From: a plasmid
Sequence record: NZ_LR134454.1
DNA length: 64,000 nt
Strand: one strand, 5' to 3'
A program made the position numbers and the translations under genes. Shown here piece by piece: positions 44,139 through 63,758 of the stretch; the first letter of the stretch is position 1; each line of letters opens with the position of its first letter. Under the pieces are notes generated by a model. It searched no databases, was not told where the DNA came from, and saw only the letters and a list, made by a program, of their open reading frames with translations.

Positions 44139-45365
44139 ATGAGCGCCGCCGGTACCAGCGATTTCGCAGCTGCAAAGCCCGCGGGTGCGGCCGGATTCGT
44201 GCCCGCACTCGAGGGCATGCGCGCGTGCGCGGCCATCGCCGTGATGCTGACCCACACCGCCTTCCAGACCGGTCAGGTGGGCTATTCGGTGGTGGGACGG
44301 GTCTGGGGCCGCTTCGACATGGCGGTCGCCCTGTTCTTCGGATTGTCGGGTTTCCTGCTGTGGCGCGCGCACGCCCGCGCCGCGTGGACCTCGTCCGACG
44401 GTCCGTCGACGGGGCGGTACTACCGGTCCCGGATCGTGCGGATCATGCCCGCGTACCTCGTGGTCGCCCTCGTCGCGCTGGCCCTGCTGCCGCGGTCGAC
44501 GGCCCCGTCGGGCTCCACCTGGCTCGCCAACCTCTCGCTGACCCAGGTCTTCGTGCCGTACTCGCTCACCGACGGTCTCACCCAGATGTGGTCGCTGTCG
44601 GTGGAGATGCTCTTCTACCTGCTGCTGCCGCTGGCCGCGCTGGCGTTGGTGCGGCTGCGCGGGGACGCGGCGCGGTGGCGGGTGCCGCTGCTGCTCGCCG
44701 CGGCGGCGGTGTCGCTGAGCTGGGCGTGGGTCGGCGCGGCGCTGCCCCTGCCGCCGGGGGTGAACCACCACAATTGGCTGCCCTCGTATGTCCCCTGGTT
44801 CGTCGCGGGCATCGTCCTCGCCGAGATCGTGAGCGCGCCGGTCTCCCGGTTCGGTCCGGTGCGGCGGCTGGCGCGGCGTCGCGTGTGTTGGCCGGCGGCG
44901 CTCGTGGTGTTCGCCGTGATCTGCACGCCGCTGGGCGGCCCCGTGACCCTCGACAGTCCCGAGTCCTGGCAGTTCGCCGTGCGCATGGGCCTCGGCGGGG
45001 TGCTCGGCTTCCTGCTGCTGGCGCCGCTCGTGTTGGCGCCCGCGGGGGAGTCGGCGCGGTGGTTGGGGTCCGGCTTCATGCTGGCGCTGGGGCGCTGGTC
45101 GTACGGCATCTTCATCTGGCACCTGGTGGTGCTCACCGCGATCTTCCCGCTGTTCGCGATCGTGCCGTTCAACGGCGCCTTCGGGAAGGTGACCCTGTTG
45201 ACGCTGGTCTTCTCCGTGGCCGTCGCGGCGCTGAGTTACGCCTGGGTGGAGGAGCCGGCCCGCCGCCGGCTCGCGCGTCGCGAGGCCCGACGGCCCGCCG
45301 CCGCGCCTCCCCGCGAGGCGCCGAACAGCCAACCGGGATTGGTGTTTTCTGTCACAAGACACTGA
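44139..45365 (+). CDS. Acyltransferase family 3 (OafA/YrhL-like) membrane O-acyltransferase
   Basis: N-terminal motif PALEGMRACAAIAVMLTHTAF (the LDGLRG..A....H signature). 10 TM helices. 408 aa. Confidence 0.8.
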   Translation: MSAAGTSDFAAAKPAGAAGFVPALEGMRACAAIAVMLTHTAFQTGQVGYSVVGRVWGRFDMAVALFFGLSGFLLWRAHARAAWTSSDGPSTGRYYRSRIVRIMPAYLVVALVALALLPRSTAPSGSTWLANLSLTQVFVPYSLTDGLTQMWSLSVEMLFYLLLPLAALALVRLRGDAARWRVPLLLAAAAVSLSWAWVGAALPLPPGVNHHNWLPSYVPWFVAGIVLAEIVSAPVSRFGPVRRLARRRVCWPAALVVFAVICTPLGGPVTLDSPESWQFAVRMGLGGVLGFLLLAPLVLAPAGESARWLGSGFMLALGRWSYGIFIWHLVVLTAIFPLFAIVPFNGAFGKVTLLTLVFSVAVAALSYAWVEEPARRRLARREARRPAAAPPREAPNSQPGLVFSVTRH

Positions 45366-59632: not shown

Positions 59633-59707
59633 CCCACGCATACCCCCGAACCCCGCAGCTAGACGCTGTCTTCTTCGGGCCGGGCCATGCGTCTGGCGCA
59701 TACCCTC
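59633..59707. repeat. Two further copies of the dispersed palindrome, about 53 bp apart
   Basis: AGTTATGCGTCCCACGCATACCCCC (about 59633-59657) and GGCCATGCGTCTGGCGCATACCCTC (about 59683-59707), between convergent 3' ends. Confidence 0.6.
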
Positions 59708-59761
59708 GTCCTCCAGCCTGACGGTCCGCCGCCCGCCACGGCGATCTGGCCCGCCCCCATA

Positions 59762-60784
59762 TCAGCGCCCGATGACCTCCGCCGCCCGCGGGCGACTCAC
59801 GGCCGCGCGGAACCGCTCCACCCCGACGTGCAGCCCCCACGACAGCACGATGGTGATCGCGGTGGTCACCACGACGATGGGCCACGTGGAACCGGTGAAC
59901 AGCGACCAGCCGAACAGGTCCAACACCACGAACTCCATGACAATCACGTGGAGGAGGAAGAACTCGTAGCTGATGGAGCCGAGCCACACCATCGGCCTCG
60001 AACCCAGCACGCGCGACGGCCCGGTCGCGAACGCGGCCACCAGCAGCCCGCCGATCAGCGCCTCCAGCAGGAACTTCGTCACCCCCTGCGCCGGGGTCGG
60101 CAGCCGGAGGTCGATCGGCCCGGCGACCGGGGTCAGCAGCACGCCGTAGGCGACCGCCGCGGCGAGCAGCAGAGGCCACCGCGGCAGCCGCACCCGGTCG
60201 ACCAGCAGCGCCACCGCCATGCCCGCGGCGAACGCGGCGGCGAACCCGGGCGGCCACGACCGCGCCGTCTTCCCGAAGACCTCCGTCGCGGTCACCAGCA
60301 CCAGCCAGCCCACGGACAGGGCGACCATCGCCGCCGGCACCGTCCACGCCCGGCGGGCGCGCAGCAGCCACAGCCCCAGGAGTGGAAGTGCCAGGTAGAA
60401 GGCGACTTCCACGCACATGCTCCACATCTGCGTCAGGCCCGTGTGCACGTGACCGACGCCGTAGATCTGCGTGAAACTCAGGTGCCGGAGGTAGTCGCCC
60501 CACCCGTGCCCGTGCGGCGAACCGTCGGGACGCCAGAGGTAGATGACGTACACGACGGTGACCACCGCCCAGTACGCGGGCAGGATCCGCCACGCCCGCG
60601 AGACGGCGTACCGCCGCACGTCCGGAGGCGTGCCCCCGGCCCGTGCGCGGATCCACGGCCGCACCAGCAGGAACCCCGACAGCGCGAAGAACACGGGCAC
60701 CGCGGTCTCGAGCCGCGCGTAGGCGGCGCCGAGCGCATCCGGGGTGAAGTCACCGCCCCAGAACGCGGCGTGCGTGACGCACAC
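59762..60784 (-). CDS. Acyltransferase family 3 protein; no canonical start codon upstream of the conserved N-terminal motif (possible non-ATG start, pseudogene or sequence error)
   Basis: The family signature ALTGLRALAAFGVCVTHAAF is encoded in frame between the YhgE/Pip TGA (60860-60862) and the first GTG (60784). There is no ATG/GTG/TTG in those 25 codons, only ATC and CTG. Confidence 0.55.
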   Translation of the reverse strand: MCVTHAAFWGGDFTPDALGAAYARLETAVPVFFALSGFLLVRPWIRARAGGTPPDVRRYAVSRAWRILPAYWAVVTVVYVIYLWRPDGSPHGHGWGDYLRHLSFTQIYGVGHVHTGLTQMWSMCVEVAFYLALPLLGLWLLRARRAWTVPAAMVALSVGWLVLVTATEVFGKTARSWPPGFAAAFAAGMAVALLVDRVRLPRWPLLLAAAVAYGVLLTPVAGPIDLRLPTPAQGVTKFLLEALIGGLLVAAFATGPSRVLGSRPMVWLGSISYEFFLLHVIVMEFVVLDLFGWSLFTGSTWPIVVVTTAITIVLSWGLHVGVERFRAAVSRPRAAEVIGR

Positions 60785-60859
60785 CCCGAACGCGGCCAGC
60801 GCCCGCAGGCCCGTGAGGGCGGGGACGTGGCCGGAGCGCGAAGCGGGTGCGATGGTGCC

Positions 60860-62896
60860 TCAGATCTTGATCGCGGGGATGAGCCGGTCGAGGTTCCAGA
60901 GCCGGTTCCGCCGGGCGGAGAGGCACGAGACCGTCACGGACGCGACCCACAGGAACACCAGCACCGCGATCGCCTGCCAGAGGCGGTTGTCGATGCCGCC
61001 CAGGATCAGCTGCCGCAAACCGTTGACGCCGTACGTCATCGGGTCGTACTTGTGCAGGATCTGGAAGGGTCTGGCGGTGGTCTCCACCGGATACATGCCG
61101 CCGGAGCTCACCAGCTGCAGCATCAGCAGCGCCATGATGAGCACGCGGCCGACGGCGGGCCCGACGAAGGCGTTCACCGCCTGGGTGAACGCGATGAAGG
61201 ACAGCGATACCCCCATCATGAAGAACACCATCGCGACGGGATGGGCCACCTCGAGGCCCAGCCCGAAGCGCACCACGCAGTACAGGATCGCCGCCTGGAA
61301 CAGGCCGATCGCGGCCGCGGGCAGGTAGCTCGCCATGACCACGCGGATCGCCAGCACCTCGGCGGCGATGGCGCGGTTCTGCAACGGCCGGAACACCATC
61401 CACAGCACCAGCGCGCCGAAGAACAGTGCCAGCGTGAGGAAGAAGGGCGCCATGCCGGTGCCGAAGTTCGGGGCGCGGTTCTCGTGCTGCGCGTCCAGCT
61501 GGACGGGGCCGCCGATGGTCTGCGCGACCTGCGAGGTCTGCTCCTGCGACCACTTGGGCACGGCGCCCGCGCCCTCGCGCAGCTTGGTCGACAGCTCCTG
61601 GCTGCCGTCGCGCAACTGCACCGTACCGGCCGAGAGCCGGGTGGCGCCGTCGGACAGCTGCGTGATGCCGTCGTCGAGCGTGGCGTTGCCCGCGGCGAGT
61701 TGCTGCGCGCCCGACCGCAGTTCGGTGAGCTTGGCGGTGAGGTCCCCGCCGGTGGCGCCGACCTGGGCGAGCACCGTCTGCAGGGGGCTGCCGGGCGTGC
61801 GGAGCTGCTCGGTCATCGTCGCGGCGGCACCGGCCGCTGCGGTGATCTGCTGCTTGGCCGCGGGCGTCACCGACGCCTGCGCGAGCTGCGCGCGAACCGC
61901 GCGCAGGCCCTCGGCGGACTGCCGTGCCACCGGGTCGGGGCTGGCGGCGAGCTGCCTGATCGCGGCGTCGATCCCCGCCAGCGCGGTGTCCTGCGTCTTG
62001 ACGAAGACGCCGGCCTTGTCGGCGGCCTCGACGAGTGCGGCTGCGCTCTGCTGCAGCTGCGCAGTGTTCCCGCCCAGCCCGGACAGCGCCTTCGTCACGG
62101 CGAGAAGGGGATCCGTGGCCTGGGTGATCCCGTCGGAGAGCTGCTGCGAGCCCGCGCGCAGCTGGGCCGAGCCGGTCTTCGCGGTCCCGAGGCCCGAGGC
62201 GAGCTGGGCGGCACCGTCGTTCGCGGTCACGAGACCGTCGTGGAGTTTCCCGGCCCCGTCGGCGGCCTGCTCGATCCCGGACCCGGCGGTGATCATCATC
62301 GACAGCACCTGGTTCACCGCCTGCCCGGAGACCCGGGTGGAGACGGCGTTGAGGACCTGCGACATCGCGGTCTGGCCGATGGTGGAGCTGATGTAGTTGT
62401 TGGCGTCGTTGTACACCGCTTGCAGCTGCGCCTTCTCGGGCTTGCCGCTCATCGGGGAGGCGATGGCGGCGGAGAAGTTCTCCGGCAGCTCCAGCATGAA
62501 GTAGTAGGTGCCGTCCTTGACGCCCTGCTGCGCCTCGGCGGGGGAGACGATGTTCCAGTCCAGGCTCTTGTCGTCGGCGAGCGACTTCTCGACCTCGGCG
62601 CCCGCGTTGATCTTCTGGCCCTTGACCTCGGTCCCCTTGTCGGCGTTGACGAGCGCGACCGGCATCTTGTTGACGTGGCCGAACGGATCCCAGAACGCCC
62701 ACAGGTACAGGGCGCCGTAGACCAGCGGCAGCAGCATCATCACGACGATCGCGGCGCGCGTGAGCCGGCTGCGGCCGAAGCGCTTGATCTCGGATCCGAA
62801 GGCGAGGCCGGCGGCGATGGGGACCAGGCTGCCCTTCGAGGAGGCCTTCTTCGCGGGCGTCTTCGCGGGCGTGTCGTCGGAGTTCTTGTCGGACAT
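60860..62896 (-). CDS. YhgE/Pip-domain membrane protein (ABC-2-type permease with large extracellular domain)
   Basis: N-terminal TM, a long extracellular Ala/Gln-rich helical region of about 450 aa, and a C-terminal 5-TM bundle, typical of YhgE/Pip. Confidence 0.75.
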   Translation of the reverse strand: MSDKNSDDTPAKTPAKKASSKGSLVPIAAGLAFGSEIKRFGRSRLTRAAIVVMMLLPLVYGALYLWAFWDPFGHVNKMPVALVNADKGTEVKGQKINAGAEVEKSLADDKSLDWNIVSPAEAQQGVKDGTYYFMLELPENFSAAIASPMSGKPEKAQLQAVYNDANNYISSTIGQTAMSQVLNAVSTRVSGQAVNQVLSMMITAGSGIEQAADGAGKLHDGLVTANDGAAQLASGLGTAKTGSAQLRAGSQQLSDGITQATDPLLAVTKALSGLGGNTAQLQQSAAALVEAADKAGVFVKTQDTALAGIDAAIRQLAASPDPVARQSAEGLRAVRAQLAQASVTPAAKQQITAAAGAAATMTEQLRTPGSPLQTVLAQVGATGGDLTAKLTELRSGAQQLAAGNATLDDGITQLSDGATRLSAGTVQLRDGSQELSTKLREGAGAVPKWSQEQTSQVAQTIGGPVQLDAQHENRAPNFGTGMAPFFLTLALFFGALVLWMVFRPLQNRAIAAEVLAIRVVMASYLPAAAIGLFQAAILYCVVRFGLGLEVAHPVAMVFFMMGVSLSFIAFTQAVNAFVGPAVGRVLIMALLMLQLVSSGGMYPVETTARPFQILHKYDPMTYGVNGLRQLILGGIDNRLWQAIAVLVFLWVASVTVSCLSARRNRLWNLDRLIPAIKI

Positions 62897-62901
62897 CGGG
62901 A

Positions 62902-63570
62902 TCAGTCCTTCCGGGTCAGGGCGCGGCGGTCGTGCAGGGTGTGCTGCGGGGCGGTGCCGCCGAGGGGGTTGGTGACCCCGACGATCACGGTGTAGCGGGT
63001 GGAGACCGCGCCGAGCCGCTGTACGGCCTCGGCGCGTCCTGGGTTGTCGCGGACCTGCTCCAGGTCGCCGACGATGAGGATCGGCCGGTTCCCCAACAGC
63101 GCCAGCGTGATCCGCAGCAGGAACAGCTGCAGGTCGCTGAGCTCGACGATGCGGGTCTTCGGCCCGGGTCGGTCGACGTCACCGAAGACCTGGTCCATCT
63201 CGAGGCTGCCGGCGCTGAGCGGCACCATGGAGTACCAGGGCGCGAGCCAGCGCCGCTGCTCGGCGAGCACGGTCTCGACGGTGACCGAGTCGTCCAGGTC
63301 GTCGATGTCCTCGAAGGCCGCGATGGCGCACTTCTTCCGGATCGCGCCCGGGGTGGTCGCCCCGAGGGCGTTGACGGTGCCGTGGTTCGGCTTGAGCCGC
63401 CCGGCGAGGGTGAGGAGCAGCGCGTCCTGGTCGCGGCCCGCGGGCATCTGCACGGCGTGCAGGCCGGGCCCGAACTCCAGGTCGATGCCCTGGAACAGGG
63501 GGCCGTGCTCCCCGTCGACGCCGATGTTCACCGCCGCGAGCTGTACGTCGTTCGGCTGGTCGTCATCCAT
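62902..63570 (-). CDS. ABC-type nucleotide-binding-domain-like protein with degenerate Walker A/B (pseudo-ATPase partner of YhgE/Pip)
   Basis: NBD-like fold (signature-like LSDLQ, D-loop-like region), but the Walker A position reads PAGRDQDA instead of GxxGxGKS/T. Confidence 0.55.
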   Translation of the reverse strand: MDDDQPNDVQLAAVNIGVDGEHGPLFQGIDLEFGPGLHAVQMPAGRDQDALLLTLAGRLKPNHGTVNALGATTPGAIRKKCAIAAFEDIDDLDDSVTVETVLAEQRRWLAPWYSMVPLSAGSLEMDQVFGDVDRPGPKTRIVELSDLQLFLLRITLALLGNRPILIVGDLEQVRDNPGRAEAVQRLGAVSTRYTVIVGVTNPLGGTAPQHTLHDRRALTRKD

Positions 63571-63758
63571 GCGGGCTCTCCGGAGGTCGTCGGCGCAGGT
63601 CGGTAGCAATCCTACGGTGGCGGCGCGAGGGTGCGGCGCGCACCGTCGGGCGCGCGGCGGCCGCACGGTCGGGCGCACCGTCGGCCCCGGGAACGGGCGA
63701 GGGCGCCCCGACCGGTGGTCGGAGCGCCCTCGGGGTGCTCGTGGTTACGAGGCGACGA

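Follow-up and report, generated by a model that had tools for sequence, protein, structure and literature searches.

How an acyltransferase-3 (AT3) gene that has no canonical start codon at its conserved N-terminus might be translated is the question raised by one locus of a plasmid sequence (record NZ_LR134454.1), of which a stretch of 64,000 nucleotides (nt), referred to here as the window, was analyzed. On the minus strand, the AT3 gene follows directly behind yhgE, a yhgE/pip-family gene for an ABC-2-type membrane protein (60860–62896, 678 codons, from ATG 62896 to the stop codon TGA 60862–60860). A preliminary description of the window had reported that the AT3 gene lacks a canonical start, that it adjoins the yhgE stop codon in the same frame and that the first canonical start codon would remove part of the first transmembrane (TM) helix. 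It had considered a non-canonical ATC or CTG start, a recent ATG-to-ATC mutation that made a pseudogene, a sequencing error, or stop-codon read-through that fuses the two proteins. Every coordinate and sequence statement about the missing start and the adjoining stop was borne out. The comparisons below make it very probable that ATC 60853–60851 is the start codon of an intact and functional AT3 gene (59762–60853, minus strand, 363 codons from the ATC, stop codon TGA 59764–59762), which would most likely be reached by coupling to yhgE.

The in-frame codons past the yhgE TGA are GGC ACC ATC GCA CCC GCT TCG CGC TCC GGC CAC GTC CCC GCC CTC ACG GGC CTG CGG, continuing after CGG with GCG CTG GCC GCG TTC GGG GTG TGC GTC ACG CAC, and the translation of this region reads G T I A P A S R S G H V P A L T G L R A L A A F G V C V T H A A F. 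The first two codons are the 6-nt spacer GGCACC (60854–60859), which separates the yhgE stop codon from the proposed initiation codon (60851–60853), the latter being identified by comparative conservation. The first in-frame ATG, GTG or TTG is the GTG at 60784–60782, and the sole other start-capable codons are ATC 60853–60851, CTG 60808–60806 (Leu16 counted from the ATC) and CTG 60799–60797. The match to PF01757 (Acyl_transf_3) extends from residue 14 after the TGA to the C-terminus, scores 104.8 bits against a cut-off of 31 and covers profile positions 3–324 of 326. Two motifs, R/K-X10-H and RXXR, were defined according to PMC7448272. The first lies in TM helix 1 at 60770–60805 (R ALAAFGVCVT H), with the Arg at 60805–60803 and the His at 60772–60770, and the second follows TM helix 2 as R-A-W-R within S-R-A-W-R-ILPAY. 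The P-A-L-T-G codons (60809–60823) lie upstream of every other possible start. The closest proteins to the window AT3 are acyltransferases of Tsukamurella tyrosinosolvens, at 99% identity.

To locate the start by ortholog alignment, as the preliminary description had proposed, the orthologous yhgE-AT3 junction was taken from 14 further Tsukamurella genomes in a scan of one genome per species, and T. pulmonis, T. serpentis, T. soli and five metagenomic contigs came from protein-based searches. This alignment decided in favor of the ATC. An in-frame ATC was found 2–7 nt past the yhgE stop codon in all 19 loci in which AT3 lies directly behind yhgE, representing at least 14 species. The spacer is 6 nt long in 12 of these loci (the window, CP019066.1 of T. 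tyrosinosolvens, T. hominis, M9C, T. asaccharolytica, both T. ocularis loci, T. sputi, T. conjunctivitidis, T. pulmonis, the metagenome-assembled genome T2.bin.43 and PLM1), 3 nt in T. strandjordii, 2 nt in three loci (Tsukamurella sp. 1534 and the loci L079 and L080) and 7 nt in three (T. spumae, T. pseudospumae and NPDC003166).

The sequence around the ATC has been far freer to change. Five of the six spacer positions vary among the nine analyzed loci with a 6-nt spacer, where codon pairs such as GGC ACC, GCC GCC, GTC GTC and CGC ACC were seen, and only 7 of 80 four-fold degenerate sites (9%) are invariant across 14 species. Because the flanks and the four-fold sites vary in this way, an unconstrained trinucleotide would not have survived, and the conservation of the ATC points to constraint. 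No start-capable codon precedes the ATC within the 63–64 open codons of the AT3 frame in the spumae group (T. spumae, T. pseudospumae and sp. NPDC003166). At the L079 and L080 junction, AAGATCTGATCATCGA, there are two consecutive in-frame ATCs, the first of which (TGATCATC) overlaps the yhgE TGA by 1 nt. Taken across the genus, the alignments indicate that no start-capable codon other than the ATC is conserved and that selection has acted on the ATC from the crown-group ancestor onward.

These data bear directly on whether the ATC is simply a damaged ATG, either a mutation that turned the gene into a pseudogene or an error of sequencing or assembly. The ATC is one base from ATG, and the copy in Tsukamurella sp. 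PLM1 is frame-disrupted, both of which would fit such an explanation. However, the junction is base-for-base identical in the independent complete genome of T. tyrosinosolvens (CP019066.1), the arrangement recurs in 17 further loci, and AT3 open reading frames (ORFs) of 357–392 codons are intact in 14 species, with 14 of the 15 tested genome loci intact. Over the whole gene, the ratio of nonsynonymous to synonymous substitutions (dN/dS) is ~0.30 across 14 species. We regard a pseudogene or an error as extremely improbable, and the earlier suggestions of a recent mutation and of a sequencing error are not sustained.

The PLM1 copy (L016:3001–4097, AP025688.1) is broken up among three frames (2, 1 and 3 in tblastn), and its ORF from the ATC has only 97 codons. 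It may be either a true pseudogene or the product of indel errors in the assembly.

A second possibility was that the yhgE UGA is read through, or bypassed by frameshifting, to give a YhgE-AT3 fusion protein. The two genes do share one frame in 13 loci, the window among them, and lie only two sense codons apart. This shared frame proved incidental, however, since yhgE and AT3 are in different frames wherever the spacer measures 2 or 7 nt, which is so in six loci (one phase in sp. 1534, L079 and L080, the other in T. spumae, T. pseudospumae and NPDC003166). In addition, the two spacer codons are unconstrained and the length of the spacer changes by non-multiples of three, the 120 best-matching AT3 homologs listed are 287–417 residues long with none of fusion length, and T. 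soli and T. serpentis have AT3 without an adjacent yhgE. Fusion by read-through, which had been listed among the initial explanations, is thus highly improbable as a conserved mechanism.

The remaining alternative is that translation starts downstream of the ATC, at CTG 60808 or GTG 60784, which would yield a protein of 348 or 340 residues and leave the stretch between the TGA and the start untranslated and conserved for some other reason. These codons are among the only other start-capable ones, and several RefSeq, GenBank and IMG models use them. GTG is moreover a canonical start that would be much stronger than AUC, and a start at CTG 60808 would preserve R-X10-H. The pattern of substitution upstream of both codons nevertheless argues against this explanation. 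In a codon alignment of 14 species, the PALTGLRALAAFG motif, which lies wholly upstream of the GTG and whose region has the consensus P-A-L-T-G-L-R-A-(L/V)-A-A-(F/L)-(G/A), had a mean dN of 0.049 and dS of 0.439 (dN/dS ~0.11), compared to a dN of 0.154 and dS of 0.516 for the remainder of the gene. The PALTG codons showed synonymous third-position changes only (CCC/CCG, GCC/GCG, CTC/CTG, ACC/ACG and GGC/GGG/GGT). At least six changes are needed to account for them, and the chance of all six falling at third positions would be ~(1/3)^6 = 0.0014 if substitutions were random among codon positions. This is the pattern of a protein-coding region and not that of an RNA motif, and no conserved or regulatory RNA structure was found at the junction, as the single-sequence fold had z = +0.88 and the alignment fold had a positive covariation term with only 1 of 31 pairs compensatory.

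The insertions and deletions in this region follow the same pattern. Those between the ATC and PALTG are of −3, +3 and +12 nt, all multiples of three, while the spacer lengths ahead of the ATC (6, 3, 2 and 7 nt) differ by non-multiples of three. The ATC is therefore the point from which evolution has preserved the frame.

The two downstream codons are themselves poorly conserved. For the Leu16 codon, CTG 60806–60808 in the window and the start in some RefSeq 348-residue models, T. ocularis CIP111612 has CTA and Tsukamurella sp. 1534 has CTC, and neither triplet is usable as a start. The codon homologous to GTG 60782–60784 is GTC in T. sputi. Neither is preceded by a Shine-Dalgarno (SD) sequence (−2.2 kcal/mol at GTG 60784 and −2.5 kcal/mol at CTG 60808). 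The GTG was confirmed to lie within TM helix 1, with the conserved Arg upstream of it, and because it falls between the Arg and the His, a start there would remove the essential Arg of R-X10-H, a motif that is invariant in the 14 species and is retained only with a start at the ATC or at CTG 60808. In Salmonella OafA, R14A leaves 0.07% of activity and H25A 0.33% (PMC7448272).

Together, these comparisons indicate that the region upstream of the GTG is translated and that the GTG is not the conserved AT3 start. A downstream start is, in our judgment, unlikely as the explanation of the locus, and initiation at CTG or GTG is possible as a minor or additional event, but it leaves the constraint on the protein sequence upstream unaccounted for. 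Orthologs with a short N-terminus starting at the GTG, which the preliminary description had named as evidence against its reading, do exist as 340-residue annotations, but these are choices of gene callers. With regard to the non-canonical start that it had proposed, the ATC holds, being invariant in the crown clade apart from T. serpentis, which has ATG at this position, whereas the CTG does not.

A start in another frame, overlapping the 3' end of yhgE, was also considered as a general rule and rejected. A GTG of this kind runs on into AT3 without interruption only at loci with a 2-nt spacer, and in the window the frame that holds its counterpart ends in a stop.

If AT3 is translated from the near-cognate AUC (60853–60851), the product would be a protein of 363 residues beginning M-APASRSGHVPALTGLR... 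that keeps the whole first TM helix and the R-X10-H motif. The peptides predicted to be diagnostic of such a start are (M)APASRSGHVPALTGLR and MAPASRSGHVPALTGLR.

Four lineages outside the crown clade start AT3 with canonical codons, and these lie roughly as far from the catalytic His as the ATC of the crown clade does, which is 27 codons before the His and 2–7 nt past the yhgE stop. In the metagenomic locus L078 the start is a GTG directly after the TAG stop codon of yhgE (0 nt) and 26 codons before the His. A second metagenomic locus, L075, has an ATG followed by an ATC, 10 nt past the yhgE stop and 32 codons before the His, and Tsukamurella sp. 8F (L012) has a GTG 19 nt past the stop and 22 codons before the His. 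In T. soli (L074) two genes are inserted between yhgE and AT3, and the start is a GTG ~43 codons before the His. Of the two genes inserted in T. soli (L074:1770–3000), one encodes 212 residues and runs in the opposite direction, and the other is for a MarR-family regulator; the AT3 of T. soli has a longer N-terminus.

In a neighbor-joining tree of AT3 proteins, built without support values, the 18 ATC-bearing tips and T. serpentis formed one clade above the outgroups, with T. serpentis placed inside the ATC clade beside L079. T. serpentis (L082:300–460, BAAGVH010000003.1) is the one crown-clade lineage in which AT3 no longer lies behind yhgE. There, yhgE and the ABC-ATPase-like gene that precedes it have been deleted, and AT3 now lies behind a fadE-like gene. 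The AT3 gene has been joined to an operon leader, GCGGAGAGC...ATG, with the junction exactly at the start codon, and the sequence ahead of it (...CCGTAGGATCGGAAGACC...GATCAGCGGAGAGCACTCGG) shares homology with the leader that precedes the first operon gene in T. spumae and sp. 1534. The gene opens ATG GCG CCA GCA GAG, compared to ATC GCA CCC GCT TCG in the window, so that the ATG stands exactly at the ATC position, and it is preceded by a GGAG-type SD (−6.6 kcal/mol). This lineage supports the assignment of the ATC as codon 1 of AT3, and it also supports the view that an ATC is acceptable only when the yhgE stop codon comes immediately before it.

We then considered how ribosomes may reach the AUC. 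SD strength was calculated as the duplex energy of the 20 nt before a start with the anti-SD sequence, and the background median in the window was −3.3 kcal/mol. The yhgE gene has a canonical start (ATG, GTG or TTG) and an SD that are kept across species. In the window the latter is GGAAGGA (62906–62912, minus strand), lying within the final codons of the gene ahead of yhgE, which stops at TGA 62904–62902; its duplex energy is −9.0 kcal/mol, and CGGAAGGACTGA is kept in all crown-clade loci. Before the ATC, by contrast, no conserved SD was found in the 15 loci tested. The duplex energy was −0.7 to −4.1 kcal/mol in 11 of them and −7.0 kcal/mol in the other four, the window included (GAGG, 4 nt from the ATC).

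Since no conserved SD precedes the ATC, coupling to the termination of yhgE translation is the most plausible route. Termination-reinitiation operates at distances of −8 to +10 nt, and its efficiency collapses beyond ~20 nt (PMC10666635). The stop-to-start distance of 2–7 nt on the same strand in all 19 loci is within this range, and would become a 1-nt overlap of stop and start in L079 and L080 if the first ATC of TGATCATC is used. Ribosomes terminating at the yhgE UGA would thus reach the AUC by termination-reinitiation, and AT3 synthesis would be tied to that of YhgE and held far below it. We infer initiation with formylmethionine at the AUC, dependence of AT3 on yhgE termination and a low level of AT3 expression tied to YhgE.

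Several observations weigh against this interpretation. In E. coli, AUC is a very weak start, initiating with Met at ~0.02–3% of the level of AUG (bioRxiv 10.1101/063800). The case for coupling draws on proximity and the missing SD only, and coupling alone leaves the preference for ATC unexplained, as two outgroups whose spacers are just as short start with canonical codons. The tree from which a single clade was read carries no support values. In sp. 1534, L079 and L080 there is a GTG inside yhgE in frame with AT3, which is a possible start in those loci; the yhgE codons CTG TGG AAC create this GTG, and every other species has it out of frame. Finally, the annotation of AT3 with an ATC start in some records is not independent evidence.

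The public records of this gene are discordant. The window AT3 read from the ATC is identical to P0125 (WP_074850338.1/SEB73542.1, 363 residues), and the ORF from the GTG is P0123 (340 residues). The protein deposited for CP019066.1 (AUN38993.1/WP_102100973.1, MAPASRSGHVPALTG..., 363 residues) begins at the ATC. Within T. tyrosinosolvens, one gene has been deposited as proteins of 363, 348 and 340 residues, the 348-residue models opening MRALAAF..., and relatives have over-extended AT3 models of 368–389 residues. With a 2-nt spacer, as in L008, L079 and L080, gene callers took the GTG inside yhgE and extended AT3 by ~13–14 codons into yhgE in another frame (P0013, P0015 and P0016, MEPGPAHPRDQDL...), and these are probably over-extended models as well.

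The same CP019066.1 record also begins its yhgE model (652 residues; L073:1036) at an ATC, which corresponds to window positions 62816–62818 on the minus strand. The outgroups sp. 8F and L075 have an ATG at that position (MLAGLAFGSE). In every crown-clade species, yhgE has a canonical ATG, GTG or TTG with the GGAAGGA SD, placed 14–32 codons ahead of the ATC; in the window this is ATG 62896, at 26 codons. This yhgE call looks like a homology-driven annotation artifact, unlike the ATC of AT3. Because the deposited AT3 models are inconsistent (363, 348 or 340 residues) and the same record starts yhgE at an ATC, we did not accept annotation as evidence for the ATC. Based on the comparative data, we consider the AUC start of AT3 to be strongly supported.

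The AUU starts of E. coli infC and pcnB are the textbook examples of conserved non-canonical starts. As in those genes, a near-cognate AUH codon is here the only available start of a conserved and functional gene and has been kept among orthologs, and a weak start implies low or regulated output. AT3 differs from them in having AUC and not AUU, in lacking a recognizable conserved SD, in lying 2–7 nt past an upstream stop codon and in encoding a membrane acyltransferase and not a translation or RNA factor.

For near-cognate initiation we relied on the measurements of Hecht et al. (bioRxiv 10.1101/063800), and for termination-reinitiation on Huber et al. 2019 and 2023 (PMC6728339, PMC10666635) and a review (PMC12548453). 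Like the gene pairs described in the latter, yhgE and AT3 are co-directional, their distance falls within −8 to +10 nt, and AT3 has no conserved SD. The TGATC arrangement of two loci (L079 and L080) mimics the classical 1-nt overlap TGATG. Unlike classical coupling, in which ATG or GTG is used (ATGA, TGATG), the restart codon here would be the near-cognate AUC, and coupling at this locus is our proposal.

With respect to the protein, the window AT3 resembles the AT3-only O-acyltransferases (Oac and the AT3 domain of OafA/OatA; PF01757) in its full-length Pfam match, in having R-X10-H in TM helix 1 and RXXR after TM helix 2, and in its size of ~360 residues without an SGNH domain; acyl transfer to an acceptor outside the cytoplasm is its predicted activity. 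It differs from the known settings of AT3 proteins in its genomic partner, which is a YhgE/Pip ABC-2 protein and not an O-antigen or peptidoglycan locus. A literature search for bacterial AUC starts or Tsukamurella returned mostly work on mitochondrial genomes and eukaryotic initiation, and nothing on this locus.

The window contains a second, paralogous AT3 gene on the plus strand (44139–45365; PF01757, 97.3 bits), which the preliminary description had offered as an intact point of comparison. It proved to be a true AT3 gene that starts with ATG. It shares 35% identity with the AT3 behind yhgE, in an alignment that opens at VPAL.G.RA.

The assignment of the upstream partner is based on profile matches to TIGR03061 (203 bits), TIGR03062 (241 bits), PF12698 (ABC2_membrane_3) and PF12051. 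The central region of YhgE, residues ~215–445 (gene 60863–62896, minus strand), contains six X-X-X-Leu-X-X-Gly heptad repeats (TIGR03057), and the N-terminal part of YhgE shows a likeness, at 69.6 bits and below the cut-off, to EsaA of type VII secretion (TIGR03929). Upstream of yhgE lies an ORF of 258 codons (62902–63678, minus strand; 222 residues in CP019066.1) that had no Pfam match and showed a sub-threshold likeness to ABC ATPases (TIGR03873, 16.8 bits). The SD of yhgE sits in the stop-codon region of this ORF. The ORF probably opens an operon of three genes in which AT3 is the last. On the plus strand, an antisense ORF of 1102 codons (59687–62995) spans both yhgE and AT3. It has no homology, and is the usual antisense open frame of high-GC DNA and not a gene.

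Non-canonical AUH starts, termination-reinitiation and some public records with an ATC start of this gene were already known. What is new is the comparative demonstration, from alignment and tree, that the ATC has one origin, that it has been retained across the genus and that it reverted to ATG on uncoupling. To our knowledge, well-supported and evolutionarily stable AUC starts are rare in bacteria. In this instance the reversion to ATG coincides with the loss of the upstream gene, yhgE. A more specific model, which we advance tentatively and judge to be a little less than evenly probable, is that only ribosomes fresh from termination at the yhgE UGA initiate at the AUC, that reinitiation in Mycobacteriales accepts an AUC lacking an SD, and that the AUC was fixed genus-wide for a very low and fixed AT3:YhgE ratio, returning to AUG with an SD only on uncoupling, as in T. 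serpentis. The locus is a natural system for asking whether reinitiating ribosomes tolerate near-cognate starts better. It also calls for a correction of annotation, as the 340-residue models lack the catalytically essential Arg, and comparative start-codon analysis would mend the discord between models of 363, 348, 340 and 368–389 residues. For the biology of these organisms, the arrangement suggests that, in the cell envelope of mycolic-acid bacteria, a YhgE/Pip ABC-2 membrane protein and an AT3 acyltransferase are linked in function and in stoichiometry.

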